From contig JAEZRM010000095.1 of NCBI GenBank assembly GCA_023412805.1, forward strand, positions 54,109-118,108: 64,000 nucleotides of DNA. Reading direction: 5' to 3'. How positions within the stretch are numbered: the first letter of the stretch is position 1; each line of letters starts with the position of its first letter. Below the pieces are notes generated by a model. That model was not told the DNA's origin. It was given only the letters and a program-made list of their open reading frames with translations, and did not search any database. The position numbers and the translations under genes were made by a program. Positions 3,492 through 58,424 of this stretch are shown here, in pieces. Source of the stretch: Pseudomonadota bacterium. Lineage in GTDB: Bacteria > Pseudomonadota > Alphaproteobacteria > Rhizobiales > Hyphomicrobiaceae.

Positions 3492-3800
3492 GCGTCAGTC
3501 GCGCCTTCGGCACGAGAGGGGCTACCGCCCCTTCGACCCCGTTCGGGGGACACCCCCGAACCCCCGTCTTTTATGGACTTGGAGCAAGCCGCGACGGAGA
3601 CAGATCCGCTCTCCCCGCGTGCGGGGAGAGCGCTAGGGTGAGGGGCGGCGGCATACGTCGACGTCGCGCAAGTTATCGCCGCTCATCCCGACCTTCTCCC
3701 CGTGAAGGACGGGGAGAAGGGGAAAAGCAGCAACCCGCACTACTTCATGAGCGCGCGACTGCGCGCCGGCCGGTAGGCCGAGCTAGGAAGAAAGACTACT
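3492..3800. repeat. REP/MITE-like hairpin-rich intergenic element (copy A)
   Basis: Module at 3499-3584 (cgcgccttcggcacgag...gttcgggggacacccccgaaccccc...ttatggacttggag) recurs at 52042-52120. There are also perfect hairpins gctctccccgc-gt-gcggggagagc (3608-3631) and ccttctccccgt-gaagg-acggggagaagg (3692-3720). Confidence 0.75.
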
Positions 3801-4463
3801 TTACTCCGCCGCCTTGACGCCCGTCCCGATCTGGCAGGCGACGCCCGTACCGCCGAGACCGCAATAACCGTGCGGAACCTTGTGCAGGTACTGCTGGTGA
3901 TAGTCCTCGGCGAAGTAGAAATCCGGCGCATCGAGGATCTCGGTGGTGATCGCACCGAAACCCTTCGCCTTGAGCGCCTTGCCGAACATCTCCTTCGATG
4001 CCTCGGCGGCGGCGCGCTGTGCCTCGTCGAAGACATAGATGCCGGAGCGATACTGTGTGCCGACATCATTGCCCTGGCGATTGCCCTGCGTCGGGTCGTG
4101 GCTCTCCCAGAAGGTCTTGAGCAACGTCTCGTAACTCATCTTCTTCGGGTCGAACACGACGAGCACGACTTCGTTGTGGCCCGTGAGGCCCGAGCAAACT
4201 TCCTCGTACGTCGGGTTCGGCGTGTAGCCCGCGGCATAGCCGACGGCCGTGATCCAGATGCCCTCCTCGAGCTCCCAGAACTTGCGCTCGGCGCCCCAGA
4301 AGCAGCCCAGGCCGAACATGGCCATCTGCATGCCCTCGGGATAGGGCCCTTTCAGCCCGTGACCATTGAGCGCGTGCGTGCGCGCGGTCGGGATCGGCTC
4401 TGCGCGGCCCCCGAGGGCCTGATCGCGCGAAATCATCTCTGCTTTCTTGCGGAAGAACAGCAT
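3801..4463 (-). CDS. msrA: Peptide-methionine (S)-S-oxide reductase MsrA
   Basis: [17 protein letters not shown] catalytic GCFWG motif; colinear with E. coli MsrA over its full length. Confidence 0.95.
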
Positions 4464-12190: not shown

Positions 12191-12226
12191 GGCGGAAACT
12201 CCAGGTTGTAGACAGACTACCTGTTG

Positions 12227-12251
12227 AACGTGTCGCGACCGCCAGCGTTCC
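12227..12251 (-). promoter_or_regulatory. sigma-EcfG-type promoter, GGAAC-N16-CGTT (perfect)
   Basis: Minus strand GGAACgctggcggtcgcgacaCGTT. The -10 element lies 37 nt upstream of the PRC-barrel ATG. Confidence 0.65.
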
Positions 12252-12354: not shown

Positions 12355-13464
12355 CTAGTTGGTCTGCCAGCTGCGGTATCTGGGATCATGGCAGTCATCG
12401 CGAAACTCGCGCAGTAGAAGATGATGATGCGCGGATAGCGCGCAAACGGGATCGGTGTTGACCGCGTCACCTGTGAGCGCCAGCGCCTGACAGCGGCAGC
12501 CGCCGAAGTCGATCTCCCTCTGCGGACAAGATCTGCAAGGTTCTTTCATCCATGACGTGCCGCGATAGGCCTGAAACGCTGATCCGCTGAACCAGGCATC
12601 ATGTAGGGAGTGATCGCGGACATTCTCGAATTTGAGGCCGGCTATCGATTGCGCACCATGGCACGGCAAGATCATTCCTGAAGGCGTCACGACCATGAAC
12701 CGTCGCCCCCATCCACCCATACAGGGCTTGGGCTGCACTGCGTAGTAATCCGGCACGACGAAGTCGATTGCGAGAATGCCACGCAGACGTTCGCGAGCAG
12801 CTGAGACAAGCTCCACTGACCGCTCCACCTGCTCCCGCGTCGGCAAGAGCGTTGCGCGGTTGCGGAGCGCCCAGCCAAGATACTGGACATGTGCCACCTC
12901 GAGCCTTTCGGCACCAACTTCAACTGCAAGTTCGATCATGGCCGGTAAGCGAGCGAGGTTGAGGCGATGAACCGGCGCGTTGATCGTGAGAGCCAGCCCT
13001 GCCTCGCGCACAATCCTCGCAGTCGCGATCTTGCGTTCGAGGCCTCGGCGGTACTTTGTTACGACCGCAGTGCCTTCCTCCGTAGTATCCTGCAGCGAGA
13101 TCTGCACATGATCCAGCCCCGCCTCGGCAAGTGCGCTGATGCGTTCACGTCCAAGAGAGACGCCAGCCGTTATGAGATTGGTGTAGAGGCCGGCTCGCAT
13201 TGCCCCGGCAACGAGCTGGACGATGTCCTTGCGCGCAGTAGGCTCTCCGCCCGACAGGTGGAGCTGCAGTACACCGAGTTTGGCGGCTTGCTGGAATACA
13301 TCCAGCCAAAGCTCGGTTGGAAGTTCTGCGCTCGCACGTTCGAGCTCCAATGGATTGGAGCAATAGAGGCATTGCAGCGGGCAACGATGGGTCAGCTCCG
13401 CGAGAAGTCCCACAGGCCGGCCGACGGCCGAGACGCGATTGGCGTGTGGGCTGCAATCGTTCAT
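12355..13464 (-). CDS. pqqE: PQQ biosynthesis radical SAM/SPASM enzyme PqqE
   Basis: LLAELTHRCPLQCLYCSNP (CxxxCxxC) plus a C-terminal SPASM Cys cluster. Last gene of the pqq operon; its ATG overlaps the pqqD stop (ATGA). Confidence 0.93.
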   Translation of the reverse strand: MNDCSPHANRVSAVGRPVGLLAELTHRCPLQCLYCSNPLELERASAELPTELWLDVFQQAAKLGVLQLHLSGGEPTARKDIVQLVAGAMRAGLYTNLITAGVSLGRERISALAEAGLDHVQISLQDTTEEGTAVVTKYRRGLERKIATARIVREAGLALTINAPVHRLNLARLPAMIELAVEVGAERLEVAHVQYLGWALRNRATLLPTREQVERSVELVSAARERLRGILAIDFVVPDYYAVQPKPCMGGWGRRFMVVTPSGMILPCHGAQSIAGLKFENVRDHSLHDAWFSGSAFQAYRGTSWMKEPCRSCPQREIDFGGCRCQALALTGDAVNTDPVCALSAHHHLLLREFRDDCHDPRYRSWQTN

Positions 13465-13784: not shown

Positions 13785-14499
13785 AAGCGCCCGGTGGTGG
13801 AATAGCTGGCGTCACATAGGCATGATGCAAGGCGTCGAGCTGCGCCCACAGTACGTTGCACTTGAAACGTACCGCCTCAACGCAGGCGTTCTGCGCGTCG
13901 AGGGAGGTGGCATTCTCCTTCACATAAGACAAAGCGAAATCTGCATCGCGATTGGCCTGCGATAGGCGGCGTCGGAAATAGGTGAGGACACGTTCGTCGA
14001 TGAAGTCGTAGTGCTCCAACATGCCCGCAATGCGCTGCTCGTGAATCGCGGGTGCAAACAATTCGGTCAATGACGACGCCACGGCCTCCACCAGCGAGCG
14101 CTCTCTGACAAACCTGACATAAGCCTCAACCGCGAAGCGCGTTGCGGGAAGTGCGCCGACCATAGATGTTACATAGGTGCGCTCGAGACCAAGTCCGTCT
14201 GTCAGGCGCAACCAGCGCTCAATGCCGCCTTCATCTTCGCCTATACCATCGTGATCGACGATCCGGCGCAGCCATTCGCGCCGCAGATACTGGTCACTTG
14301 TGCGGCTCATCAGCGCCGCATCCTTTCTTGGAACTGCTGCCTGATAGCAGTATCGGTTCAGCGCCCAAGCCTGCACTTGCTGCTTGTTGAGCTTGCCGCC
14401 ATGAAGGAGCCTATGGAACGGGTGCTTGTCGTGATACCGCTCGCGACCAACCTCCCGGATGACATCCTCGAACGCAGCCGGCGACATGGCTGGCTTCAT
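13759..14499 (-). CDS. pqqC: Pyrroloquinoline-quinone synthase PqqC
   Basis: RYHDKHPFHRLLHGGKLNKQQVQAWALNRYCYQAAVPRKDAALM is the conserved PqqC N-terminus. 246 aa. Confidence 0.93.
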   Translation of the reverse strand: MKPAMSPAAFEDVIREVGRERYHDKHPFHRLLHGGKLNKQQVQAWALNRYCYQAAVPRKDAALMSRTSDQYLRREWLRRIVDHDGIGEDEGGIERWLRLTDGLGLERTYVTSMVGALPATRFAVEAYVRFVRERSLVEAVASSLTELFAPAIHEQRIAGMLEHYDFIDERVLTYFRRRLSQANRDADFALSYVKENATSLDAQNACVEAVRFKCNVLWAQLDALHHAYVTPAIPPPGAFEAGARHE

Positions 14500-15410
14500 A
14501 TCCTCATCTCCATGCCGTCATGGGCGACTTCCCATCCTGCCTCCGCAATCGCCACTCGTTCCTGGCCGTCCTCTCTCAGCACCGGGTTCGAATTGTTGAG
14601 ATGGAGGAAGATGCGCCGGCCAACCTTTAAGCTCCGCAGGCGTGCGATGGAGCCTTCAGGGCCGCTCATGGAAACATGCCCCATCATGGCACCTGTCTTC
14701 TGTGAGAGACCCAGATCGATGAGTTCGCGATCTCGATAGAGCGTCCCATCGAAGAGTATCACGTCAACGCCGTCCAAGACACCGAGGACATCTTCTGTAA
14801 TTCGGGCGCAGCACGGCACATATGCGACGCTCCGATTGCTCTTGGCATCGCGAATGACGAGAGCAATTGAGCTCCCCTTGTCCAGCGAGCGCTCTGATCG
14901 ACGTTGAAGCGGCAACGGCACCTTGCCGGGCATCGGCTGCGGCGTAATTTCAATCGAAGCGCCATCGTGCGGCGAGGATGGCGATCCGAGGTGCATTTCT
15001 CTGCGGTGAACGACGGAACGCGACAACACGTTGAAGATTTCGTTGGTAGCGAGTGCCGCGTGAACAAACGCCGTTGCGTAAAGCCGAAATTCCTGCCCTT
15101 CACGCAGATTGAGGAGGCCACCCACTTGGTCGACTTCGAAGCCTGTGACTGCGACAGCCTTGATTGGACTCGACCTTGCGGCATCCTTCACCCTCGGCTG
15201 AAGCACAGGCGCAGCGGCGATCTGAGCCCGGAGGTCAGGCGTCGCATCTAGCAGGACCCAGTCATGCCCATTGCCAGATACGGCGATCGACGTCTGAGTG
15301 CGCGCAATGAATTTGTGATCACCTGAGCGGACGGCAGCACAATTCGCGCAGTTACAGTTCCACTGCGGAAAGCCGCCGCCCGCTGCGGAGCCGAGGATGC
15401 GGACAATCAT
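14496..15410 (-). CDS. pqqB: PQQ biosynthesis protein PqqB (MBL fold)
   Basis: MIVRILGSAAGGGFPQWNCNCANCAAVR is the hallmark PqqB N-terminus. 304 aa. Confidence 0.93.
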   Translation of the reverse strand: MIVRILGSAAGGGFPQWNCNCANCAAVRSGDHKFIARTQTSIAVSGNGHDWVLLDATPDLRAQIAAAPVLQPRVKDAARSSPIKAVAVTGFEVDQVGGLLNLREGQEFRLYATAFVHAALATNEIFNVLSRSVVHRREMHLGSPSSPHDGASIEITPQPMPGKVPLPLQRRSERSLDKGSSIALVIRDAKSNRSVAYVPCCARITEDVLGVLDGVDVILFDGTLYRDRELIDLGLSQKTGAMMGHVSMSGPEGSIARLRSLKVGRRIFLHLNNSNPVLREDGQERVAIAEAGWEVAHDGMEMRI

Positions 15411-15575: not shown

Positions 15576-16964
15576 TCATTGAACGGTTTTGGGAGGCGTC
15601 ACAGGCGCATCGCGTTGGCCGTTCAGAGATTGCTGCCGCGTTGGTCCAGCAGGGCCTGTGACACGCCATATGGTGTCGCCGGCGTCGTCTGCCACAAGAA
15701 CCGCACCACTTCTATCGACGGCTACACCAACTGGGCGGCCGAAAACTTCTTTGCTGCCGTCATCATTCACGAAGCCTGCGAGCAAATCGATCGGCGGACC
15801 GTTCGGCTTTCCGTTCTCGAAGGGCACGAATACGACTTTGTAACCGCTGTAATTGCTACGATTCCATGAGCCGTGCTGGCCGATGATCATGCCACGTCGG
15901 AAAGGTTCTGGCAGAGCCGTCCCTTCATAGTAGGCGAGACCGAGCGCCGAAGTATGAGCACCGAGTGCATAGTCGGGCGTGATCGAGCGCGCGACGAGGT
16001 CGGGACGTTGCGGCTCGACACGCTGGTCGACAATCTTGCCCCAATAGCTGTACGGCCAGCCGTAAAACCCGCCATCGACGACTGAGGTCAAATAGTCGGG
16101 GGGCGTGTCATCGCCAATCTCGTCGCGCTCGTTGACTACGGTCCAAAGTGAGCCAGTTGTGGGCTCAAATGCCATGCCATTGGCGTTCCGAAGTCCGGAC
16201 GCAAATACGCGCACGCGCTCGGTGGCGACGTCATATTCCATGATCGTGCCACGGTCGACCTCAACGCCCATGCCTTTCTCGCCGATATTGCTGCCAGAGC
16301 CGACCGTAATGTAGAGCTTCGAGCCGTCGGGGCTTGCGATCAATGTCCGCGTCCAGTGGTGGCCGACGGGCAAGTCGACGACCTTGGTACCCTCGCCTGC
16401 GACGCGCATAACTCCGTCCTGGTAGGTGTACCTGACGACGCTATCGGTGTTCGCCACGTAAAACTGATCGCCGATGAGCGCCATCCCAAACGGCTGACGC
16501 AGGTTCTCGAGAAAAGTCTCACGCACTTCGGCCACGCCATCGCCGTCCGCATCTCTCAGGAGCGTGATGCGATTGGCATTCTCCGTGATGGAGCGTGCGC
16601 GACGCATGGCCCAATTTTGCGCAATCGCGCGGGGGTTCCAAGAGTCGGCGGGAAGACTGGCAGCTTCCGCCACCAGCACATCACCGTTGGGCAGAATGTG
16701 GATCCAGCGAGGATGTTTCAAATCCTTCGCGAACGCGGATACCTCCGCGCCGCCTGCAGGCCTGGGCTTGGTACCTTCGGGCCATGGGTTTACGCGAGCC
16801 CAATTGAGTGTGGGCAACCACGATTGCTTGGGCTGCGGCAGTTCCGGCTTGGGCCCATAGCCGGGAGTACCATTCGAGGAATACTGAGCAGATGCTGGAG
16901 CGATTGCCATGGCGAGCATTGCGCTGATGAGACACACTCCGACAGTTTGGATAGACGTTGGCAT
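15576..16964 (-). CDS. PQQ-dependent sugar (sorbosone/aldose) dehydrogenase, periplasmic
   Basis: Signal peptide MPTSIQTVGVCLISAMLAMAIAPASA. Beta-propeller YliI/sorbosone-dehydrogenase-like sequence (GYGWPYSYWG..., GDDTPPDYL). The stop is 31 nt upstream of pqqA, so co-transcription is probable. Confidence 0.8.
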   Translation of the reverse strand: MPTSIQTVGVCLISAMLAMAIAPASAQYSSNGTPGYGPKPELPQPKQSWLPTLNWARVNPWPEGTKPRPAGGAEVSAFAKDLKHPRWIHILPNGDVLVAEAASLPADSWNPRAIAQNWAMRRARSITENANRITLLRDADGDGVAEVRETFLENLRQPFGMALIGDQFYVANTDSVVRYTYQDGVMRVAGEGTKVVDLPVGHHWTRTLIASPDGSKLYITVGSGSNIGEKGMGVEVDRGTIMEYDVATERVRVFASGLRNANGMAFEPTTGSLWTVVNERDEIGDDTPPDYLTSVVDGGFYGWPYSYWGKIVDQRVEPQRPDLVARSITPDYALGAHTSALGLAYYEGTALPEPFRRGMIIGQHGSWNRSNYSGYKVVFVPFENGKPNGPPIDLLAGFVNDDGSKEVFGRPVGVAVDRSGAVLVADDAGDTIWRVTGPAGPTRQQSLNGQRDAPVTPPKTVQ

Positions 16965-17009: not shown

Positions 17010-17034
17010 AACAGCAAACGAGCGCAGCCGTTCC
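17010..17034 (-). promoter_or_regulatory. sigma-EcfG-type promoter, GGAAC-N16-TGTT
   Basis: Minus strand GGAACggctgcgctcgtttgcTGTT. The -10 element is 46 nt upstream of the sugar dehydrogenase ATG (first gene of the sdh-pqqABCDE unit). Confidence 0.45.
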
Positions 17035-17040
17035 ATTCAC

Positions 17041-17066
17041 GGAACGCCTCATCCGTGGGCCACGTT
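17041..17066 (+). promoter_or_regulatory. sigma-EcfG-type promoter, GGAAC-N17-CGTT (perfect), back-to-back with the previous one
   Basis: Plus strand GGAACgcctcatccgtgggccaCGTT. It is 185 nt upstream of the GSP26-like ATG, implying a long leader. Confidence 0.45.
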
Positions 17067-17194
17067 CTTCAATCGAGCTGATTGTACCCACCGACTGATC
17101 CTGAAGGCTCCGCCGCTGAAGCTCGTGGAGAACGGCAAGTTACTTCCCTGCAATCTTCGCTCTGAAGCCGGAACCTGAGACGGTCATTCGGAGA

Positions 17195-17219
17195 GGAACT
17201 TGCGCTGATCGCCTTGGTT
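17195..17219 (+). promoter_or_regulatory. sigma-EcfG-like promoter, GGAAC-N16-GGTT
   Basis: GGAACttgcgctgatcgccttGGTT. The -10 element is 32 nt upstream of ATG 17251, with one mismatch in the -10. Confidence 0.4.
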
Positions 17220-17250
17220 GTCCTTCAAAAGGCAACACAGGAGTAGATCG

Positions 17251-17736
17251 ATGCCGACACCGCAGGAGCTCGAAGCAAAATTCTGGAAATCTCTTCAGTC
17301 CGATATGACCATGATGCTCGGTCTCGACGGCTTGGAGGATGGGCACGTGCGCCCCATGACCGCTCAGGTCGAAGGCGCGCGCGGCCCGATCTGGTTCTTC
17401 TCGAGCAAGGACAATGCGTTGGTCGAGAAGCTACCTCAAGGCGACCGCGCTATCGCGACCTTTACTTCGAAGGGCCATGACCTCTTCGCTACTTTGCACG
17501 GTAAGCTCAGCCTCGACAACAATCCAGCCACAATAGACAGGTTGTGGAACCGGTACGTCGCCGCATGGTTCGAAGGCGGCAAGTCGGATCCGAAGCTGGC
17601 TCTTCTCCGCCTCGATCCCGAGCGCGCCGAAATATGGTTGGATGCATCGAGCATTGTTGCGGGTATCAAACTGCTTCTCGGTGCCGATCCGAAGGAACAG
17701 TACAAGGAGAACGTGGCCAAGGTGGAGCTTCGCTAA
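17251..17736 (+). CDS. General stress protein 26-like, pyridoxamine 5'-phosphate oxidase family
   Basis: Start at ATG 17251 (AGGAG RBS). MPTPQELEAKFWKSLQSDMTMMLGL...RPMTAQVEGARGPIWFFSSKDNALV...IDRLWNRYVAAWFEGGKSDPKLALLRLDPERAEIW matches the GSP26 pattern. Confidence 0.85.
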   Translation: MPTPQELEAKFWKSLQSDMTMMLGLDGLEDGHVRPMTAQVEGARGPIWFFSSKDNALVEKLPQGDRAIATFTSKGHDLFATLHGKLSLDNNPATIDRLWNRYVAAWFEGGKSDPKLALLRLDPERAEIWLDASSIVAGIKLLLGADPKEQYKENVAKVELR

Positions 17737-18876: not shown

Positions 18877-18903
18877 GGAACAGATGACCAAACAATTCGT
18901 TCC
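18877..18903. promoter_or_regulatory. Palindromic bidirectional sigma-EcfG-type promoter
   Basis: GGAACagatgaccaaacaattcGTTCC. The plus strand reads GGAAC-N16-CGTT (perfect, toward the 18993 operon). The minus strand reads GGAAC-N16-TGTT (toward 18813/18733). Confidence 0.6.
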
Positions 18904-18992: not shown

Positions 18993-19256
18993 ATGACACC
19001 GCGAAGATTTGCGATTGTCGATGGCCCGGATAAACCCGCTCTTCAACGATCCCTCGCCCACTCCGGCGTGAATGACGTGCATTTCCGTGTCGAAGGCGAT
19101 GCGTTCGATGCGGACATTCAGCGCATGGATGAGGAGGCGGACGGCTTCACATTCAAGCTGTTGGGTCGTCTGACGTCAGGACGCGACCGTGGAGCTTCTT
19201 TCCATGGCATCTACAGTATCGAGAGCCGATCCGGATGGCTCGAACTCGGAGATTAA
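18993..19256 (+). CDS. Hypothetical 87-aa protein (first gene of EcfG-type operon)
   Basis: AAGGAG RBS. Acidic soluble composition: MTPRRFAIVDGPDKPALQRSLAHSGVNDVHFRVEGDAFDADIQRMDEEADGFTFKLLGRL... No family recognised. Confidence 0.55.
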   Translation: MTPRRFAIVDGPDKPALQRSLAHSGVNDVHFRVEGDAFDADIQRMDEEADGFTFKLLGRLTSGRDRGASFHGIYSIESRSGWLELGD

Positions 19257-19270
19257 TTGAGGAGCCCCCC

Positions 19271-19492
19271 ATGGCCAAATGCGATGTATGCGGAAATGAC
19301 TATGACAAGGCCTTCAAGGTTATTCAGGGTCAGCGCGAGATGACTTTCGACAGTTTCGAATGCGCGGTTCATGCAATGGCGCCGCGTTGTGAGCATTGTG
19401 AGTGCCGCATCATCGGCCACGGTGTCGAAGCTGGAGGGAAGTTATTCTGTTGTGCGCATTGTGCGACCCACGAGGCGGGCCATGCGCACTAG
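19271..19492 (+). CDS. Cys/His-rich small metal-binding protein (73 aa)
   Basis: Start at ATG 19271 (GAGGAG RBS). MAKCDVCGNDYDKAFKVIQGQREMTFDSFECAVHAMAPRCEHCECRIIGHGVEAGGKLFCCAHCATHEAGHAH has 9 Cys in CxxC / CxC / CCxxC arrangements. It belongs to a conserved but uncharacterised family that I recognise only by pattern. Confidence 0.7.
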   Translation: MAKCDVCGNDYDKAFKVIQGQREMTFDSFECAVHAMAPRCEHCECRIIGHGVEAGGKLFCCAHCATHEAGHAH

Positions 19493-19986: not shown

Positions 19987-22560
19987 GTGGAAACTGACGC
20001 GATCGAAAATCGCACCGAGAGCGGGGAGAGCGAGCAGCCGCGGAGCGTCGTCGTGATCACGGGCGCAAGTGGCTTCATCGGACGCGCCCTGGCGACAGAG
20101 TTGGCGGGCCAGTACGATGTCATCGGCCTCGACTTCGCTTTGCCTGATGCTCCCTCATCCACGTTTGAAGCGATCCGCGTTGATCTAACCTCCGACCAGA
20201 GCGTCAAGGCAGCGTTCGGCCGTATCCGCGCCGCCTACGGCAATCGCATAGCGAGCGTCATTCATCTGGCCGGCTACTACGATCTTTCTGGCGATCCCAA
20301 TCCCAAATACGAAGCGGTCACCGTGCGCGGCACTGAGCGGCTTCTCCGGGCGCTGGATGATTTCGATGTCGAGCAGTTCATCTACGCCAGCACCATGCTG
20401 GTGCACGGCCCGACCGATCGCGGACGACCGATCGACGAGGATGCACCGCTGCAGCCGAAGACACCCTATCCTCAATCGAAGGCGGATACGGAGCATCTGC
20501 TCCGTGAAAAGCGCGGAGATATCCCGCTCATCATACTGCGTCTCGCGGGCGTGTATGATGAGCGCTGCCGTGCCGCATTTCTCGCCCAGCAGATTGCCAA
20601 TATCTACGAGCGGCAGTTCGTCAGCTACGTCTATCCCGGCGATCCAGAAAGCGGACAACCCTATCTTCACCTCGACGATCTTACTGATGCGGTCGTCCGC
20701 CTGATCGAGCGCAGATCCGATCTCTCCGAAGACATGACGTTGCTGCTCGGCGAGCCGGAGACGATGGGCTATGCCGATCTGCAAAAGGACATCGGTCGAT
20801 TGCTTCACGGTGAGGAATGGGAAACGCAGCAGATCCCCGCCCCACTCACCAAAACCGGCCAATGGCTGCAGGAGGATGTACTCGATCAGGATCCTTTCGT
20901 TCAGCCATGGATGATCGACCAGGCAAGCGACCACTACGAGATCGACATCTCACATGCCAAGGAGACGCTGGCTTGGTGGCCCAAGCATCGGCTTCGGCAG
21001 ACACTCCCCAAGATCATTGAAGCCCTCAAGGCCGATCCACCAGGATGGTACACGGCGAACAAACTGAATGCGGCACAGGTCGCGGCGTCCGATCCGGTCC
21101 TCGAGGAGGCCAAGATCCGCACGGAACGGCTGTCACGCAAGGATCGCCTGCGGGTAGAGGAAGAGCTGAACACGCAGCACAGCCAGACAACTTGGGCCCA
21201 CCTCGCCAATGCGGCGCTCGGTTTGTGGCTCGTCGCGAGCCCGTTCGCGCTAGGCCTGTTCGATCCGATTGGCAATGTCGCATCGCCCCCGGCGGCGGGA
21301 CACGCGCTCGCTGCCGCGGAACTCCGAAATCTGCGGCTCGGCGTCAGCGAAATGATCAGCGGCGCCGCAATTGTCCTCTTATCGCTGCTGGCCCTGAACC
21401 GCGCCAGATCGTGGGCACAGTGGGCGAGCGCCGCCGTCGGGGTGTGGATCCTGTTCGCCCCGCTCGTGTTCTGGACGACCAGCCCCGCGGCCTATGCCAG
21501 CGACACGCTGATCGGGATGCTGGTCATCGTGCTAGCCGTGATCGTTCCAGCGCAGCCCGGCATCAGCCGTGAGGCCCTCGCCTCACCTGCCGACGTTCCA
21601 TTGGGGTGGAGCTATTCGCCCTCGAGCTATTCGCAGCGCATGCCCATCGTTGCGCTCGCGTTCATCGGGCTCTTCATCTCCCGCTATCTTGCTGCCTACC
21701 AGCTGGGCCATATCGACGGCACCTGGGATCCGTTCTTTCAGGGCATCGAGGACCAGCAGAATGGAACGGAAGCGGTAATCACGTCGGCTGTGTCCAAAGC
21801 CTTCCCGATTGCCGATGCCGGCTTCGGTGCCATTGCCTACGCGCTCGACATTCTCACCGGTGCGATCGGCGATCGACGGCGCTGGCGCACAATGCCCTGG
21901 CTCGTACTCATTTTCGGCCTGCTCATCATTCCGCTCGGGCTCGTCAGCGTCGGCTTCATCATCATCCAGCCAACCGTCATCGGGACCCTGTGTGCACTCT
22001 GCCTCATGCAGGCAGCGGTCACGATCATCCTTGTCCCCTATTCGATCGACGAGGTGATCGCGACACTCCAGTACCTTCTCCAAAGCCGCCGAGCCGGGCG
22101 CTCGCTCTGGAAGACGCTATTTGTCGGTGGACCGGCGTTCGATGAACGCCGCGGAGCCGATGAGGACATGAGCAAGCTCGGCGACACAGTACGCGATTTC
22201 TTTCGGGGGGGCGTGACCTACCCATGGACGCTGGTTGCGACGGTCGGTGTCGGTATTTTGCTGATGTCCTCGCCGTTGATCGCCGGCAGCACCGGCACGC
22301 TGTATTTCAGCGATCATATTGCAGGGTGCCTGGCGATCACCATTGCAGTCACCGCTTTTGCGGAGGTCGCGCGTGCGGCGCGATTCCTGAATATTCCTCT
22401 CGGTTTGTGGGTAATGGCCTCGCCGTTTCTACTGACCGGCAGTTCAGCCTTAGCAACGGTTCTGAGCATAGCCGCGGGCTTGGCGCTCGTCGCATTGAGC
22501 CTGCCTCGCGGCACGTTGAGCGGCGAACACTATGGCGGCTGGGATCGGATGATCGTCTAG
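19987..22560 (+). CDS. Tri-domain fusion: NAD-dependent epimerase/dehydratase (SDR) plus SPW-repeat membrane domains plus VKOR-like membrane domain
   Basis: GTG start. VVVITGASGFIGRAL Rossmann motif, with an SDR catalytic YxxxK candidate at PYPQSK. It is followed by more than 12 predicted TM helices with SPW-like repeats (GLWLVASPFALGLF, GLWVMASPFLLTG, LLMSSPLIAG) and a TM CxxC (IGTLCALCLMQAAV) in a VKOR-like 4-5 TM block. The usual VKOR loop Cys pair is not evident. Confidence 0.6.
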   Translation: METDAIENRTESGESEQPRSVVVITGASGFIGRALATELAGQYDVIGLDFALPDAPSSTFEAIRVDLTSDQSVKAAFGRIRAAYGNRIASVIHLAGYYDLSGDPNPKYEAVTVRGTERLLRALDDFDVEQFIYASTMLVHGPTDRGRPIDEDAPLQPKTPYPQSKADTEHLLREKRGDIPLIILRLAGVYDERCRAAFLAQQIANIYERQFVSYVYPGDPESGQPYLHLDDLTDAVVRLIERRSDLSEDMTLLLGEPETMGYADLQKDIGRLLHGEEWETQQIPAPLTKTGQWLQEDVLDQDPFVQPWMIDQASDHYEIDISHAKETLAWWPKHRLRQTLPKIIEALKADPPGWYTANKLNAAQVAASDPVLEEAKIRTERLSRKDRLRVEEELNTQHSQTTWAHLANAALGLWLVASPFALGLFDPIGNVASPPAAGHALAAAELRNLRLGVSEMISGAAIVLLSLLALNRARSWAQWASAAVGVWILFAPLVFWTTSPAAYASDTLIGMLVIVLAVIVPAQPGISREALASPADVPLGWSYSPSSYSQRMPIVALAFIGLFISRYLAAYQLGHIDGTWDPFFQGIEDQQNGTEAVITSAVSKAFPIADAGFGAIAYALDILTGAIGDRRRWRTMPWLVLIFGLLIIPLGLVSVGFIIIQPTVIGTLCALCLMQAAVTIILVPYSIDEVIATLQYLLQSRRAGRSLWKTLFVGGPAFDERRGADEDMSKLGDTVRDFFRGGVTYPWTLVATVGVGILLMSSPLIAGSTGTLYFSDHIAGCLAITIAVTAFAEVARAARFLNIPLGLWVMASPFLLTGSSALATVLSIAAGLALVALSLPRGTLSGEHYGGWDRMIV

Positions 22561-26246: not shown

Positions 26247-27542
26247 TCAGTTTCCCCGCCTTACCCGAAGAATTCTCGATGATCCGATGTCTCGATCATC
26301 GGTGAGAGCGTAGACAGCACCGTCCGGCCCGATGCGCACATCCCGCACGCGAGCGTTCAATGGCACACGCTCCTCGTAGGCAACGCGATCGCCCATCATA
26401 TGGAGCACGACGAGTCCCGTCGAGACCAGCCCGCCGACAATGAATGCGCCTCGCCATCCCGGAAACTCGTCACCTTCGTACAGGGCCATTCCGGATGGGC
26501 CGATGACCGGATCCCAATAGTATACGGGCTGCTCGGTCCCGGATTTTGCGGTTGTCCCCTTACCGACTGGCTTGCCGGAATATTCCACGCCGTAGGTCGC
26601 ATCAGGCCAGCCGTAATTGAGCCCCGCCTCCGGGCGGTTCAGCTCATCTCCTCCTTTCGGGCCGTGCTCGACGATCCAAAGCCGGCCATCTCGATCGAGT
26701 GCGGCGGATTGGGTATTGCGATGGCCGTAGCTCCAGATTTCGGGCAGAGCGCCTTTTGTCTCGACGAAAGGATTGTCGGACAGCGGCTTTCCGCTCTGAT
26801 CGATCCTGAAAACCTTGCCGAGGCCGCTGCCGAGATCCTGTGCCTGCGTGCGCACTTTCGCGTCCGACCGCTCGCCTACGGTCACGAACAGCTCACCGCT
26901 GGAACCAAACACAAGGCGCGAACCGTAGTGCTTATCACCATCGTAAGTGGGCATCTGCTGGAATATGACATCGACGTTCGTCAGCGCGCCACTGCCGCTG
27001 TCGTCGAGGGCCAATGTCGCGGAGGCGACGCTGGTTGCGTTGCCGCCTTCGCGCGGCTCAGAGAACGAGAAGAAAATGCGGTTCGAGGTGTCGAAGTCTG
27101 GCGCCAGGACAACATCGAGCAGTCCGCCCTGCCCTTTGCTGTCGACCTTGGGGACTCCAGAGAACGGCTCACCGGCACGGCCGTCCCGCGAAATAACATA
27201 CATACGGCCATCCTTTGCAGTCGCCAGAAGGCGGCCGTCTGGAAGAAAGCGTATTGCCCACGTCAGAGGCAATTGCTCAGCAAACATTGATGTCGTCGTT
27301 CGCACCATCTCAGCCGGCTGCGGAGCTCGCGTCTGCCCGGCAAACGCTGGCTTCTGGTGGGGCGCATTGGGCGGCTGCGTTTCGACTGATTCAGCCGCGT
27401 CTCCCGCCCGCGCTCCCTTTGCCGGAGGTGCTCCTTCCGCTTCTTTACTGGGCGACGTACCACCGCCCGATTGCGCAAGAATGGGGAGGGCAAAAAGAGA
27501 AGATAGGATGGTGCCCACCAATAGGGGGATGGCGCGAGGCAT
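26247..27542 (-). CDS. PQQ-dependent sugar dehydrogenase (YliI/soluble aldose dehydrogenase-like), second copy
   Basis: Signal peptide MPRAIPLLVGTILSSLFALPILAQS. HRNTQSAALDRDGRLWIVEHGPKGGDELNRPEAGLNYGWP is typical of sGDH/YliI propellers. Confidence 0.85.
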   Translation of the reverse strand: MPRAIPLLVGTILSSLFALPILAQSGGGTSPSKEAEGAPPAKGARAGDAAESVETQPPNAPHQKPAFAGQTRAPQPAEMVRTTTSMFAEQLPLTWAIRFLPDGRLLATAKDGRMYVISRDGRAGEPFSGVPKVDSKGQGGLLDVVLAPDFDTSNRIFFSFSEPREGGNATSVASATLALDDSGSGALTNVDVIFQQMPTYDGDKHYGSRLVFGSSGELFVTVGERSDAKVRTQAQDLGSGLGKVFRIDQSGKPLSDNPFVETKGALPEIWSYGHRNTQSAALDRDGRLWIVEHGPKGGDELNRPEAGLNYGWPDATYGVEYSGKPVGKGTTAKSGTEQPVYYWDPVIGPSGMALYEGDEFPGWRGAFIVGGLVSTGLVVLHMMGDRVAYEERVPLNARVRDVRIGPDGAVYALTDDRDIGSSRILRVRRGN

Positions 27543-28462: not shown

Positions 28463-29632
28463 TCAAGGGCGCAACACGACTTTCACGCATCCGTCGGCGC
28501 GCGCGTTGAACGTCTTGTACAGCTCGGGCCCCTCCTCGAGCTTTCCACTGTGCGTCACGACGAAGGAGGGATCAATCTCGCCCTTTTCGATGCGCTCGAG
28601 CAGGCACGGCAGATAGTGTTGCACAGGCGTCTGCGCCATGCGGAAGGTCAAGCCGCGGTTGATCGCCGAGCCCATCGGGATCTTGTCGAGGTATCCGCCA
28701 TACACGCCGACGATCGAGACGGTGCCGAAGTTGCGGCAGCAGTGAATGGCCTGGCGTAGGACATGCGGACGGTCGGTGCCGAGGTATGTCGCCACCTTCA
28801 CGCGGTCGATCATGGAGTCGAGGCTCGCCGTGGCATCCGCCTCCGTGCCGACGGCATCGATGCAGGCGTCTGCGCCGCGGCCGTTAGTGAGCTCCATGAT
28901 GTTCTCGTAAATGTCGTGATCGCGGAAATTGAGTGTTTTTGCGCCCGCGGCTTCGGCAAGCGCAAGCCGCTCCGGCACGGCGTCGATCGCGATCACGCGC
29001 CCCGCGCCGAGCAGGAACGCACTGCGAATGGCGAACTGACCGACGGGGCCGCAACCCCACACGGCGATCGTATCGCCCGCCTGAATATTGCAGTAGTCGG
29101 CCGCCATGTAGCCGGTCGGGAAGATATCCGAGAGAAACAGGACCTGATCGTCACTGAGACTGTCAGGCACCTTGATCGGTCCGACATCAGCGTATGGTAC
29201 GCGCAGATATTCCGCCTGACCGCCCGAGTAGCCGCCAAGCAAGTGCGAATATCCGAAAAGACCCGCGGGAGAATTGCCCCAGAGCTCGGCAGCCTTGTCT
29301 CGATCCGGATTCGTACGCTCGCAGGCGGAGTGGTAGCCGCGTTGGCAGAAGAAGCACTCGCCACATGCAATAGTGAACGGAACGACGACGCGGTCACCGA
29401 CTTTAAGCTTGGTGTTCTCCCGCCCGACCTCGACCACCTCGCCCATGGTCTCATGGCCGATGATGTCGCCACTCTCCATATTCGGGATAATGCCATTGTA
29501 GATATGGAGATCCGATCCGCATATGGCGCAGGCCGTCACCTTGATGATCGCGTCGCGCGGATGCTCAATCTTAGGATCGGGCACTGTCTCGCAGCGCACA
29601 TCGTTCTTGCCGTGCCAGCACAGGGCTTTCAT
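28463..29632 (-). CDS. Zinc-dependent alcohol dehydrogenase (glutathione-independent formaldehyde dehydrogenase-like)
   Basis: [57 protein letters not shown] zinc ligands; GCGPVG Rossmann motif. Confidence 0.9.
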
Positions 29633-29642
29633 ATCGCGCTCC

Positions 29643-30431
29643 TCAGTGCTTGGCGGATCCGGGTGCGGCCTGCTGGCGATGCGCTTCGGCGAGCAGAGAA
29701 GCAGGCGTCACGTTGGCAATGGCCGACTGCAGCTTGTTGTGCCATCCGCTGACCACATCGCCGTCGCCATTCATCATGGCGCGGAAGCCCGTTGCAGCCA
29801 CATCGGCGGGGTCGTCCTTCTGGCTCTGACCAACCTTGGTATCGAGCATATCGGCCCGTTCGAAGAAGTCGGTCTCCGTGGCGCCCGGCATCAGGCATGT
29901 GACCGTCACGCCGCTGTCGGCAAGCTCTGCCCGCAATGCGAACGAAAAGGAGTCGAGGAACGCCTTGCTCGCGTTGTAGACCGCTTGATAGGTTCCCGGG
30001 ATGAACCCCGCAATCGATCCGACGATAAGAACGCGTCCCTTCCCACGCTCACGCATATCGCGACCGACGCTCTGTATCAGATAGAGCGTCCCGCTGATGT
30101 TGGTATTAACGACATGGATGACGTCATTGAAGTCCTGATCGAGAAAACCTTTGCCGAGGCCCCGCCCGGCGTTCGCCAGGAGCGCGTCCACCGGTCGGCC
30201 ACCGATAGCTCCCAGAAGCTTGTCGACGCCTTCGAGCGTGCTGAGATCTGCTTCTACAGCCTCGCAACGAACACCTATCGTCTTGAACTGCTCCGCTGCC
30301 GACTGGATTTGCGCTTCGTCCGCTGCCACGACGAGATCGAAGCCTTCGCGCGCACAGCATATCGCAAGTTCATACCCAATCCCCGTGGACGCTCCAGTTA
30401 CGACGGCAAGGGGTCTATCGAGCTTTGCCAT
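29643..30431 (-). CDS. SDR family oxidoreductase
   Basis: Start at ATG 30429-30431 (GGAGGA RBS). [23 protein letters not shown]; YNASKAF catalytic motif. The stop is 10 nt before the ADH start, so this is probably an operon. Confidence 0.88.
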
Positions 30432-30486
30432 GCTGTCCTCCAATACGGTTTCTCGACATCGCCCGCTCCGTCTCACTGACGAAACG

Positions 30487-30514
30487 GGAACGTATGCGCA
30501 TTCATCTCCGTTCC
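30487..30514. promoter_or_regulatory. Palindromic bidirectional sigma-EcfG-type promoter (perfect on both strands)
   Basis: GGAACgtatgcgcattcatctcCGTTCC. The plus strand reads GGAAC-N17-CGTT (toward yihY-like). The minus strand reads GGAAC-N17-CGTT (toward SDR-ADH, with the -10 element 58 nt from ATG 30431). Confidence 0.65.
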
Positions 30515-30559
30515 CGCTCGGACCACCCTGCTTTCACAGCGGTGACTTGGTGCTTCGCG

Positions 30560-31411
30560 ATGTGGAACGTCTTCGTAACTGCGGGTAACGATTGGCTGCG
30601 CCACCGTGATGCGCGGCTTGGTGCGGCGCTGGCCTACTACTCTGTGTTCTCTCTGGGCCCCTTGCTGCTCATTGTCGTGAGCATTGCCGGCGTGTTCTTC
30701 GGCCGTGAGACCGTCTCCACTGCGCTCAACGATCAGCTCCGCTCGCTGCTTGGCCCCGCGGGCAGTCAGGCAGTGGAGGCCATGCTTCAAGGTGCCGGCT
30801 CGCAGACAGGAGGCGCGATAGCAGCGGTAATCGGCGTTCTCCTCCTACTGATTGCAGCGCTCGGCGTCGTCGCCCAGCTCAAGGATGCCTTGAACACGAT
30901 CTGGGAGACGAAGGAGCCGGAGCATGGTGGGATCTGGGCATACATCCGCACGTACCTCGTCTCCTTCGCCGGGATACTCGCCCTTGGTTTCCTGCTAGCC
31001 GTATCGCTGGTCGTCAGCACCGCGTTATCAGGCCTCTCCGTTTGGCTCGGCGCCGGCGAAAGCCTCATATGGTCGGCGCTAAACTTCATTGTCTCCCTTG
31101 GCGTTCTGTCAGCGCTCTTCGCCATGCTGTTCAAGTGGTTTCCCGATGCCGAGGTGGCGTGGCGGGATGCCTGGATCGGAGGGCTCACCACAGCCGTGCT
31201 GTTCAACATCGGGAAGGCCGCCATTTCCTGGTACATCGGCACGCAGGGCCTGGCGTCGACGTACGGCGCCGCCGCATCCCTCGTCGTTCTGCTGATTTGG
31301 GTCTACTACTCCGCGCAAATCCTGCTCTATGGCGCCGAGGTCACGCACGTGCTCGGACGTATGGACCCGTCGCCAGCCAGCACTTCCATTCCTTCCGACC
31401 AGCTCCTCTGA
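30560..31411 (+). CDS. YihY/BrkB family membrane protein
   Basis: WLRHRDARLGAALAYYSVFSLGPLLLIVVSIAG... is typical of YihY. The start is moved downstream of the promoter to ATG 30560 (MWNVF...). The ORF-track start at 30425 would overlap the divergent gene and the promoter. Confidence 0.8.
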   Translation: MWNVFVTAGNDWLRHRDARLGAALAYYSVFSLGPLLLIVVSIAGVFFGRETVSTALNDQLRSLLGPAGSQAVEAMLQGAGSQTGGAIAAVIGVLLLLIAALGVVAQLKDALNTIWETKEPEHGGIWAYIRTYLVSFAGILALGFLLAVSLVVSTALSGLSVWLGAGESLIWSALNFIVSLGVLSALFAMLFKWFPDAEVAWRDAWIGGLTTAVLFNIGKAAISWYIGTQGLASTYGAAASLVVLLIWVYYSAQILLYGAEVTHVLGRMDPSPASTSIPSDQLL

Positions 31412-31441
31412 CCGGAAGCGCGTATCCGCCGCCGGCCGCGC

Positions 31442-31466
31442 GGAACAGTGCGTGCTTTGGCGCGTT
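31442..31466 (+). promoter_or_regulatory. sigma-EcfG-type promoter, GGAAC-N16-CGTT (perfect)
   Basis: GGAACagtgcgtgctttggcgCGTT. The -10 element is 34 nt upstream of the cinA-like ATG. Confidence 0.65.
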
Positions 31467-31499
31467 CGCCGATCAAGGACTTGAGCTCAGGGGCAATCG

Positions 31500-32006
31500 A
31501 TGTCGCAAGGCATCGCCATCACGGATCTTTCAGCTCGCGTTGTGGACGCAGCGCGAACATCCAAGACCAGGCTCATTACTGCCGAGTCCTGCACTGCGGG
31601 GGCATTGACGACACTCCTTGCCGACACACCCGGCGCAGGAGACGTACTGGTCGGCGGCGTCGTCACCTATTCGAAGTCTTGCAAGGTGGACCTGCTCGGC
31701 ATTCCGCCAAGCCTCATCGCATCGTGCTCGGCCGTCAGCGCAAAGGTAGCCGCGGCGATGGCACAAGGGGCACTCGACAAATGCCCTTCGGCCGATATCG
31801 CCATCGCAGTCACGTGTGTCGGGGGCCCCAAGCCTGACGATGACGGCAATCCCGTCGGGCTCGCATATCTTGCCGTGCAACGGCGCGGCGCCGCAATAAA
31901 TGTGCGCCACCTCCTAATCGAGGCGCAAAGCTCAGGCCGTATTCGCGGAGACGTGCTCGCTCGCGCGTTGTCTCTGCTGCTCGAGGTCCTGACGTCGAAA
32001 GGCTAG
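31500..32006 (+). CDS. CinA-family (PncC-type nicotinamide-nucleotide amidase domain) protein
   Basis: LITAESCTAGALTTLLADTPGAGDVLVGGVVTYSKSCKVDLLGI...VSAKVAAAMAQGAL is the canonical CinA C-terminal domain. Confidence 0.88.
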   Translation: MSQGIAITDLSARVVDAARTSKTRLITAESCTAGALTTLLADTPGAGDVLVGGVVTYSKSCKVDLLGIPPSLIASCSAVSAKVAAAMAQGALDKCPSADIAIAVTCVGGPKPDDDGNPVGLAYLAVQRRGAAINVRHLLIEAQSSGRIRGDVLARALSLLLEVLTSKG

Positions 32007-41818: not shown

Positions 41819-41934
<116 letters not shown>

Positions 41935-46361: not shown

Positions 46362-46988
46362 CTATTCCTCCAGCACGAGCACGCCGCGGCTCATTTCGGC
46401 GCGGCGGAGCTGGCCGAGGAAACTCATGCCGAGCAACGTCTTCGTGAGCTTACCGGGCTCGGCAACGGCAGCGCGCACATCCCGCACGACGATGTCCTCG
46501 ATGGCTACGCTGTCGAGGGTGACCATGGCGACGCGGGCTATGCCGTTGGCCGTGCTGACGCGATGGGTGTAGTCGCCGTCGCGAATATGGATGCCGGCGG
46601 CGCGGGCATCGTCATAGGTCAGCGCCACGATCGACGCGCCAGTATCGACCATGGCCTGCACGGCGCGTCCGTTGACATGAACGCGCGAGTAGAAGTGGCC
46701 GTACGCGCCGGCCTTGAGCTGGACCATGCGGCCGGCGGAAGCCGGAGCAGCCGGCTCCTCGTCGCTCGCCTCGCCGCCCTGTTCGTCACCACCGCGCTCG
46801 ATTTGCTCGGGGGCGCCGATGGCATCGTCGGCCGGCGCACCTTCCTGGTATTCGAATTTCAGTCCGAGCAGATCGCGCACGAGATCGGCATTCATGGCGC
46901 CGATGATGCCGAAGCCGGCGAGCGCGGCCCAGACAGCCGCCAGCTTCAGGGCATTCGATGCGGAAAGCGACAACGCCATGACCGACAA
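46362..46988 (-). CDS. Retropepsin-like clan AA aspartic protease (TIGR02281-like), membrane anchored
   Basis: N-terminal TM; HFYSRVHVNGRAVQAMVDTGASIVALTYDDARAAGI has the DTGA active-site motif. Confidence 0.8.
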   Translation of the reverse strand: MSVMALSLSASNALKLAAVWAALAGFGIIGAMNADLVRDLLGLKFEYQEGAPADDAIGAPEQIERGGDEQGGEASDEEPAAPASAGRMVQLKAGAYGHFYSRVHVNGRAVQAMVDTGASIVALTYDDARAAGIHIRDGDYTHRVSTANGIARVAMVTLDSVAIEDIVVRDVRAAVAEPGKLTKTLLGMSFLGQLRRAEMSRGVLVLEE

Positions 46989-47036
46989 GTTCCCGCCTGA
47001 CTGAACAGCCGGGCCTGCCGTGGAGCTTCAGATGTA

Positions 47037-47738
47037 TCAGCTCCTCAGCGTCAGAAAGTCCCCGGAGAATTCATAAGAGCGCAGGCGGCTTAAAAAACTC
47101 ATACCGAGGAGGTTCTCGCGCAGCGCCCCGGGCTTGGAGACGAGCGCATCGACGCCGTCGACTTGTATGGACCCGATTGCGATGCTGGTGAGGCGCACAT
47201 GGGCCGCATAGGTGATGCCGTTGGCGGTCTGGACGGGCACCGTATAGCGCAGCCGGCTCGTGTCGACGCCAAGCCGCGAGGCATCCGCCTCTCGGATAAC
47301 AACGGTCGAGGCGCCGGTATCGACGAGCATGGGCATATTCTGCCCGTTGACGCGGGCATTGACTGTGAAGTGGCCATCGCGGCGCTTGCGGATGCGGACG
47401 GCCTGGGCGCCCTGCGTGCTCGGCTCGATGGATACGGCCGTGCCGGGCGGGGTCAGCTCACCGCGCACGCGATAGGCAATCTCCGTGAGCTCGTCACGAT
47501 AGCTGTAGCCGGCGACGAGAACGAAGGCGATCGCGGCCCAGGTCAGAAAATCACGCGCCGCCTGCATGGTGCGCCCGCGATAGGAGCCGGCCAGCGAAAG
47601 CGTGATCACGATCAGGAACGCGGCGAGGAAGCCGGCGGCCGCAAGGTCCGGCCAGTCGAGACCGAACAGCGTCGCATCGCCCGCGATGAGCAGGCCGAGC
47701 GCGCCGATGAGGACCATCAGTAGAATGAGCCAGCCCAT
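47037..47738 (-). CDS. Retropepsin-like clan AA aspartic protease (TIGR02281-like), paralog
   Basis: Start at internal ATG 47738 (MGWLILLMVLIGALGLLIAG; 3 TM). HFTVNARVNGQNMPMLVDTGASTVVIREADASRLGV. Confidence 0.8.
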   Translation of the reverse strand: MGWLILLMVLIGALGLLIAGDATLFGLDWPDLAAAGFLAAFLIVITLSLAGSYRGRTMQAARDFLTWAAIAFVLVAGYSYRDELTEIAYRVRGELTPPGTAVSIEPSTQGAQAVRIRKRRDGHFTVNARVNGQNMPMLVDTGASTVVIREADASRLGVDTSRLRYTVPVQTANGITYAAHVRLTSIAIGSIQVDGVDALVSKPGALRENLLGMSFLSRLRSYEFSGDFLTLRS

Positions 47739-47742
47739 TGCC

Positions 47743-47931
47743 TCAATCTCCGGTGCCGGATGGCGCAGCAGCCTCGGCCACGCGCCGTCCCGGCAAGAGA
47801 GCCATGATTCTGCGGCGCTCTGCGGGCGCATACGTGCTCCAGGCAGCAATCTCCGCAATTGTCCGCGCACACCCCGCGCAAAACCCCGATCGCGGCTCGA
47901 TCACGCAAACCTGAATGCACGGACTTTCCAT
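47743..47931 (-). CDS. DUF1289 (YdhL-like) Cys-rich protein
   Basis: SPCIQVCVIEPRSGFCAGCARTIAEIAAWSTYAPAERRRIM is the canonical DUF1289. Confidence 0.8.
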   Translation of the reverse strand: MESPCIQVCVIEPRSGFCAGCARTIAEIAAWSTYAPAERRRIMALLPGRRVAEAAAPSGTGD

Positions 47932-57352: not shown

Positions 57353-57802
57353 CTACGGTTGAAACAGCCGCATGTCCCACGCGACGGGGTGTTCGAGCCC
57401 GGGCCGTATGCGCGGCGCTTCGGGATGTCCGCAGTTGATGATCACGTTCTCCTCGATGCGGGCCACGAACGACGGCACGATCAGGATCGCCGATCGCTTC
57501 TCATGGTACCATTTCGAGCCGGCGGCCCGCGCCTTGGCGAGGTCCAGCCATCCAGGCACGGTGTCCTTCGTGAAGATCTCGTAGGAAATACCGGCCGGAA
57601 TCTCGATCTCGATGTAGTGCTGGTTCGACGGCAGTACGCCATTGAAGTGCGCGAGCTTTTCGAGGAGCGCGGTGGCGTAGTGCCGCGAGGTATAGATGAC
57701 CTCCTGACCCTTCTCGTGCCAGCGGCCCTCGATGCGCGCCGCGCCTTCGCCGCTGTAGATGGGATAAGTGCCCTGCGGATCGCCGATGCGATAGGCGCGC
57801 AT
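57353..57802 (-). CDS. RES-domain toxin (RES-Xre/MbcT-type, predicted NAD+-degrading)
   Basis: MRAYRIGDPQGTYPIYSGEGAARIEGRWHEKGQEVIYTSRHYATALLE...SAILIVPS shows the R-E-S residues in the usual spacing. It lies directly downstream of a DUF2384 antitoxin gene. An alternative GTG start is at 57817. Confidence 0.8.
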   Translation of the reverse strand: MRAYRIGDPQGTYPIYSGEGAARIEGRWHEKGQEVIYTSRHYATALLEKLAHFNGVLPSNQHYIEIEIPAGISYEIFTKDTVPGWLDLAKARAAGSKWYHEKRSAILIVPSFVARIEENVIINCGHPEAPRIRPGLEHPVAWDMRLFQP

Positions 57803-57818
57803 CGGCTCCGCGAGAACT

Positions 57819-58268: not shown

Positions 58269-58424
58269 GGCAGCACCTCCGCTATTCCACATGGAACAGA
58301 TATAGTCTCATTTGGCACCAACCACAAGGCCCAGGCGGGCGCGCGCATCTGCCTGTTGCGCTTGGGCTGGAACGTGCTATGCCCAGGCCACCCCCCAATT
58401 CTGTCCGGGTTCAGTACTGCCGCG

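Follow-up and report, generated by a model that had tools for sequence, protein, structure and literature searches.

Within the window, by which we mean the whole 64-kb stretch of DNA that was analysed, a spacer of 128 bp separates a leftward operon encoding a short-chain dehydrogenase (SDR) and a Zn-dependent alcohol dehydrogenase (ADH) from a rightward gene of the YihY/BrkB family, and a symmetric 28-bp site is found in this spacer. The features at the locus are:

28463 to 29632, minus strand: Zn-dependent alcohol dehydrogenase of the SDR operon (Pfam ADH_N and ADH_zinc_N)
29643 to 30431, minus strand: SDR, first gene of the leftward unit (Pfam adh_short, 1.7e-40)
30487 to 30514, both strands: symmetric EcfG-type promoter core of 28 bp, GGAACG-N16-CGTTCC (pattern search and alignment of five loci)
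30489 to 30514, minus strand: predicted leftward promoter (-35 GGAAC at 30514-30510, -10 CGTT at 30492-30489)
30487 to 30512, plus strand: predicted rightward promoter (-35 GGAAC at 30487-30491, -10 CGTT at 30509-30512)
30560 to 31411, plus strand: YihY/BrkB-family inner membrane protein, rightward unit (Pfam Virul_fac_BrkB, 2e-49)
31442 to 31466, plus strand: one-way EcfG-type motif upstream of a CinA-like gene at 31500-32006 (pattern search and Pfam)

The Zn-ADH gene starts 10 nt downstream of the SDR gene, whose own ATG at 30431 is preceded by a GGAGGA ribosome-binding site, and the YihY protein scores 113.7 bits against the NCBIfam model TIGR00765 (cut-off 73). The rightward unit probably consists of yihY alone, the CinA-like gene having a motif of its own. 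The earlier note had placed the start of yihY at 30560, and this assignment is supported: homologues begin with MWN(V) and one gene caller gives a protein of 283 aa. In some YihY homologues (L002 to L004) an upstream gene ends in a stop codon 12-15 nt ahead of the corresponding ATG. The GTG at 30542 may serve as an alternative start. An in-frame ATG at 30494-30496 was taken as the yihY start by gene callers on two public contigs, which yields 305 aa instead of 283 aa; since this codon falls in the spacer of the palindrome, inside the predicted promoter, the 305-aa model is probably wrong.

Both a direct reading of the sequence and a pattern search identify the site, GGAACgtatgcgcattcatctcCGTTCC, as a perfect GGAAC-N17-CGTT on each strand. 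It is made up of GGAAC (30487-30491), a 17-nt spacer gtatgcgcattcatctc (30492-30508), and CGTTCC (30509-30514), and each arm of the inverted repeat actually extends over 8 bp (cgggaacg at 30485-30492 and cgttcccg at 30509-30516). GTT, which is the core of the -10 element, is also found within the reverse complement of GGAAC, and any -10 with CC after it therefore supplies the opposite strand with a -35 at the correct spacing of 17 nt. The promoter elements of both orientations lie on the same base pairs, each -35 overlapping the opposite -10. The EcfG consensus that we used, GGAAC followed 16-17 nt later by CGTT (core GTT), was taken from PMC6599016 and 10.1101/641647. As expected of a promoter of the EcfG (ECF15) type, the site combines a GGAAC -35 and a CGTT -10 at a spacing of 16-17 nt with a position less than about 100 bp upstream of coding sequences of the regulon type, the distance from the 5' end of the motif to the ATG being 83 nt for SDR and 73 nt for yihY. 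It also has the attributes of a shared symmetric promoter, namely coincident elements and divergent genes within reach on each side, SDR on the left and yihY on the right. The claim of the earlier note that a perfect EcfG-type consensus can be read on both strands between divergent units is confirmed by the sequence and by the pattern searches.

Shuffled 64-kb sequences have an expectation of 0.06 GGAAC-N18-GTTCC palindromes each, and 6 of 100 shuffles contained one. Neither strict nor relaxed pattern searches found a second EcfG motif inside the 128-bp spacer, a scan of positions 30300-30700 returned no sigma-70-like promoter and no terminator-like site, and megablast of 29600-31500 gave no match in the plasmid collection.

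Stress genes and EcfG-type motifs in the window and in relatives

The motif GGAAC-N16/17-CGTT occurs seven times in the window against 0.76 expected, an excess of about 9-fold, and none of 100 shuffles reached seven occurrences. A cluster of stress genes extends from about 10 to 41 kb and encodes a PRC-barrel protein, a PNPOx-like protein of the 'general stress protein 26' (GSP26) type, a DUF892 protein, a second SDR, two glucose/sorbosone-dehydrogenase-like (GSDH) proteins, a DUF421 protein, a large catalase, and CoxS/CoxL-like proteins. Strict and relaxed (NGTT) motifs stand directly upstream of the PRC-barrel, PNPOx-like (GSP26-type), CinA, DUF892, DUF421, and CoxS-like genes. This gene content matches the EcfG regulon that was determined experimentally in Sphingomonas melonis, which includes PRC-barrel, GSP26, Ku, topoisomerase IB, catalase, Zn-ADH, and CoxLMS and whose motif is GGAAC-N17-20-GTT (PMC6599016). 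None of ecfG, nepR, and phyR is found among the about 34 open reading frames of the 64-kb window. The host presumably possesses an EcfG sigma factor, as suggested by the enrichment of the motif and by relatives labelled Alphaproteobacteria; within the species-representative genome set, the closest ones are MAGs with the labels Alphaproteobacteria, Hyphomicrobiales, Hyphomicrobiaceae, or Bauldia. The window sequence is part of metagenome contigs, e.g., ENA ERZ24910803 NODE_7 (215 kb).

Two of the motifs in the stress cluster stand back to back:

17034 to 17010, minus strand: one-way EcfG-type motif GGAACGGCTGCGCTCGTTTGCTGTT, directed at the gene for a 462-aa GSDH-like dehydrogenase (15576-16964)
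17041 to 17066, plus strand: one-way EcfG-type motif GGAACGCCTCATCCGTGGGCCACGTT, directed at the PNPOx-like gene (17218-17736)

The -35 elements of this pair (17010-17066) are 6 bp apart, as they are in loci L084 and L086. The near-palindromic sequence at 17041-17068 was considered as a fused site and rejected, as it is half of this back-to-back promoter pair.

The genes on either side of the 30487 site were followed into relatives. Around YihY homologues 80 loci were fetched and the strict motif was sought upstream in the same sense; it was present in 9 of them (L005, L015, L041, L059, and others), at positions from -34 to -195 relative to the ATG and mostly at about -55. A second sample of 80 metagenomic loci, fetched around SDR homologues, contained GGAAC-N16/17-NGTT in the same sense in about 19 cases, within about 160 nt of the ATG and mostly between -55 and -80, chiefly -55 to -69. 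By base counting, chance would provide about 0.006 motifs per 200-nt strand. The recurrence of one-way motifs upstream of both sets of homologues argues that each flanking unit is a recurrent target of EcfG type in relatives. The earlier note had the site driving both units, and the one-way motifs carried by homologues of each, some 55 to 90 nt upstream of the ATG (about -55 to -90), agree well with both being members of an EcfG regulon. The closest metagenomic homologue of the SDR (86% identical, locus L081, about 1000-1236) has a small Cys-rich open reading frame before the SDR gene and no palindrome, and this reading frame is homologous to positions 19235-19492 of the window. Heavy reshuffling of general-stress genes is seen between close relatives.

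Conservation and frequency of the palindrome

Including the window, the palindrome was aligned from five loci, with arrows of transcription given in words:

Window: GGAACGTATGCGCATTCATCTCCGTTCC (28 bp, perfect); SDR then ADH leftward, yihY rightward
L001 (YihY 85% identical): GGAACGTATGTGCGCCAATCCCGTTCC (27 bp, perfect); membrane protein, SDR, then ADH leftward, yihY rightward
L002: GGAACGTATGGCTACTCAAGCAGTTCC; membrane protein leftward, SDR then ADH rightward
L082: GGAACGTATGCGCAACGAAGCCGTTCC (perfect); membrane protein leftward, SDR rightward
L087: GGAACGTACGCGCTGACTGTCAGTTCC; membrane protein leftward, SDR rightward

Absence of the palindrome from orthologous spacers was one of the outcomes that the earlier note had named as speaking against its reading. 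What is found is retention of the palindrome in four related loci (L001, L002, L082, and L087), where it stands between divergent genes every time and in two further gene arrangements, the five loci together representing two or three independent lineages only. In L001 the leftward neighbour is the gene of a 158-aa membrane protein, followed by SDR and ADH, and this same membrane-protein gene lies on the left of the site in L002, L082, and L087. The same palindrome thus stands in three arrangements, i.e., between a small membrane gene and SDR-ADH, between ADH-SDR-membrane gene and yihY, and between ADH-SDR and yihY.

In the five-way alignment of the spacers, whose mean column identity is 42%, the site accounts for 15 of the 18 invariant columns (GGAACGTA.G ... 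C.GTTCC). All five loci keep the outer GG and CC unchanged, bases that are dispensable for a promoter working one way only. The arm CATACGTTCC, which forms the leftward -10 region, is kept in L001, L002, and L082 and reads CGTACGTTCC in L087. The two sides are not conserved quite equally: the leftward -10 context C(A/G)TACGTTCC is fixed in 5/5 loci and the rightward -10 is either CGTT or AGTT. The arms are spaced by 15 or 16 nt across orthologues, and the base outside each arm changes symmetrically, from G/C in the window and L001 to A/T in L002, L082, and L087.

Locus L001, from the closest relative, has its membrane-protein gene (3405-3881, minus strand) enclosed between two GGAAC...GTTCC sites, at 3269-3296 and 3917-3943, one of which is the promoter of the SDR gene itself; the window has neither that site nor the membrane gene. 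Between the window and L001 the SDR-proximal leader is homologous for about 40 nt only, and this leader homology suggests a deletion or an insertion as the source of the difference. A recombination between the two palindromes of L001 as the origin of the window arrangement was rejected: a clean deletion from site to site is at odds with the distances and with the alignment.

The frequency of such palindromes was surveyed over 1.01 Mb, made up of the window and 160 loci. Counts of GGAAC-Nk-GTTCC form a sharp peak at k = 17 (10 sites) and k = 18 (6 sites), whereas other spacings have about 1.3 sites each. The dinucleotide CC follows GGAAC-N16/17-CGTT in 17 of 134 cases (12.7%), to be compared with a background P(CC|CGTT) of 10.2%, so that nothing points to a general selection for palindromes; the peak at N17/18 results from the abundance of EcfG sites multiplied by the chance of a following CC. 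For a genuine one-way EcfG site to match in reverse as well, its -10 need just be followed by CC and its -35 by G, and roughly 3-4% of real sites should by this reckoning match perfectly in reverse. Genes lie on both sides at about half of the 16 palindromic sites, the other half being one-sided. Symmetry by itself is no sign of selection for two-way use, and fused sites arise easily because the motif is self-complementary. One independent perfect palindrome, GGAACGCCAGCAAGATGATATCGTTCC, is located at 658-684 of L018, a locus of a Hyphomicrobiaceae MAG, between ku (minus strand) and ligD (plus strand) as identified with Pfam, and ligD there has a second one-way motif of its own at 704-729, 20 bp further on.

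A candidate promoter shared by two divergent units

ECF sigma factors recognise the -35 element in duplex form through region 4, and the -10 element on the melted non-template strand through region 2. We regard it as probable, from the sequence and its context, that the 28-bp site is a single promoter for the general-stress sigma factor EcfG (ECF15 group) that works both ways. The holoenzyme bound in one orientation would transcribe SDR-ADH leftward and, in the other, yihY rightward, and SDR-ADH and yihY would be co-induced by one PhyR-NepR-EcfG signal. As either orientation has its -35 nested within the opposite -10, two holoenzymes are presumably not bound at once, and the two binding modes, using the same base pairs, would be mutually exclusive at any instant; the outcome would be a shared site and not a regulatory switch.

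The idea of a two-way EcfG promoter is not new. As cited in 10.1101/641647, Staroń et al. (2009) noted that the -35 and -10 elements of EcfG promoters are near-palindromic and suggested that expression could go both ways, and for Erythrobacter litoralis DSM 8509 Fiebig et al. (2019) provided RNA-seq evidence that nepR-ecfG and gsrP are both expressed from one GGAAC-N17-GTTCC site (bioRxiv 10.1101/641647). RNA-seq reads at this site start 13-14 bp beyond each end of the motif (10.1101/641647). Transposed to the window, the E. litoralis geometry predicts start sites at about 30473-30481 on the minus strand and 30520-30528 on the plus strand, about 40-55 bp apart, with leaders of about 40-50 nt for SDR and 30-40 nt for yihY; with starts so placed, the ATG at 30494 would be excluded as start codon of yihY and the GTG at 30476 as that of SDR. 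The window site resembles that of E. litoralis in its self-complementary GGAAC...GTTCC core, in its location between divergent general-stress genes, and in being the sole EcfG motif of its spacer. The two differ in geometry, N18 separating GGAAC from GTTCC in the window (equal to N17 up to CGTT in both senses) instead of the N17 of E. litoralis, which L001, L002, L082, and L087 share exactly. They differ also in the genes served, since the site in the window stands before effector genes (SDR-ADH and yihY) and is known from sequence, whereas that of E. litoralis serves a regulatory locus and is backed by RNA-seq.

The sigma-70 symmetry promoters of Warman and Grainger reportedly have AT-rich -10 elements that coincide and start sites about 18 bp apart. 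The window site departs from them in nesting a -35 in the opposite -10, in its ECF sigma factor, and in predicted starts about 40-55 bp apart. Bidirectional sigma-70 promoters have key elements that coincide on opposite strands through an inherent symmetry, as two reports describe them (10.1101/2020.01.31.928960; NAR 2026, PMC12825309), and the likeness is one of a pseudo-symmetric site with two orientations, in which one binding excludes the other (Warman et al. 2020; PMC12825309). Nearer at hand are the back-to-back EcfG pairs of the window (17010-17034, minus, and 17041-17066, plus) and of L084, L086, L007, and L010, which would likewise co-induce divergent stress units from a short spacer. 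Unlike the 30487 site, which is the fully fused version, these consist of two separate sites, with -35 elements 6 to about 20 bp apart, that could both be occupied simultaneously.

A strand that carries a perfect consensus ought to be bound even if selection played no part in it, and this already weighs against the unlikely, though by no means negligible, case of a one-way EcfG promoter, most likely leftward, whose reverse match would be accidental and whose other gene would be expressed from an unrecognised promoter or by read-through. Such an accident is in keeping with the survey, where palindromes are near the chance rate among EcfG sites (12.7% vs 10%) and about half of them have a gene on one side only; it would also fit the leftward -10 context being fixed in 5/5 loci while the rightward -10 varies, as well as the separate second motif of ligD in L018. 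Nevertheless, YihY homologues repeatedly have an EcfG motif of their own, the spacer contains no alternative EcfG motif or sigma-70-like promoter, the outer GG and CC are invariant in all five loci, and a two-way precedent supported by RNA-seq exists (10.1101/641647). It is also very doubtful that the site acts as a competitive or stochastic switch, a possibility raised in the earlier note. Single cells would then express either SDR-ADH or yihY in an anticorrelated manner; the proposal refines the two-way reading and is not an alternative to it. The full overlap of -35 and -10 elements does imply mutual exclusion, and at bidirectional promoters of the sigma-70 type RNA polymerases were found to compete, but only if transcription one way was strongly activated; the same source gives a basal activity too low for competition at 5/5 sigma-70 promoters tested (PMC12825309). 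Moreover, both orientations have identical cores and the same sigma factor, with no known bias of choice, palindromes are not enriched beyond chance, and relatives, like the window elsewhere, use separate back-to-back promoters for similar gene pairs (window 17010-17066, L084, and L086), from which co-induction, not alternation, looks to be what is selected; the switch is accordingly not borne out.

That the palindrome is no sigma-factor site at all, and acts instead as the operator of a dimeric transcription factor or as a DNA or RNA hairpin, strikes us as highly improbable. The half-motifs are abundant in one-way, non-palindromic form upstream of stress genes, and the spacing of the arms varies between 15 and 16 nt, which sigma promoters tolerate and fixed dimeric operators usually do not; against this one may set the 8-bp arms and the symmetric change of the base outside each arm between lineages. 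The single strand of the site folds at -9.9 kcal/mol (z = -2.1), a marginal value since 7 of 200 shuffles fold as well, there is no terminator-like site nearby, and at the Rfam gathering threshold the window yields two tRNAs only, with no match at the site. As both predicted start sites fall beyond the repeat, the hairpin would be absent from both transcripts.

Read as an EcfG promoter used in both orientations, the 30487 site would stand beside the single two-way EcfG case supported by RNA-seq as a conserved example outside the regulatory locus. It shows with what ease the self-complementary GGAAC and GTT give rise to two-way sites, and it opens no new mechanism. In practice, motif scans of alphaproteobacteria should score both strands and assign both neighbours to the regulon. 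It is tempting to speculate, although we hold it for rather improbable, that the palindromic site is a portable module functional in either orientation, whose mutual exclusion perhaps shapes the cell-to-cell partitioning or noise of both stress operons; such a module would keep driving the genes that land on either side of it after rearrangement.

Further candidate sites and genes of the window

Besides the 30487 site, one more near-palindromic sequence may be a fused promoter site:

18877 to 18903, both strands: second fused near-palindromic candidate GGAACAGATGACCAAACAATTCGTTCC, perfect on the plus strand and with a TGTT -10 on the minus strand, with long leaders

Its neighbours are a membrane protein without Pfam match on the left (17834 to about 18733, minus strand) and, on the plus strand, a small open reading frame at 18993-19256 followed by the Cys-rich reading frame of 85 aa at 19235-19492. 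The near-palindromic sequence at 12225-12251 was examined as a two-way site and rejected, since pqqE converges on it and leaves it with no rightward gene.

This pqqE gene (12355-13464) and pqqB (14496-15410), both recognised by NCBIfam equivalog matches, adjoin the two dehydrogenases of the GSDH family, which may be PQQ-dependent. An EcfG-type motif lies upstream of the one at 15576-16964, and none was found upstream of the other, at 26247-27542. Within the stress cluster, positions 19987-22560 encode an 857-aa fusion of an NAD-dependent epimerase domain, SPW repeats, and a VKOR (vitamin K epoxide reductase) domain. Near the right end of the cluster stands a tRNA gene (41861-41934, minus strand), with housekeeping genes, among them purN and purM, downstream, and this tRNA may mark the boundary of an island. 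Two adjacent paralogous genes for retropepsin-like (gag-asp_proteas) aspartyl proteases are found at 46362-47870, and a pair composed of a RES-domain toxin and an Xre/MbcA/ParS-type antitoxin at 57353-58292.
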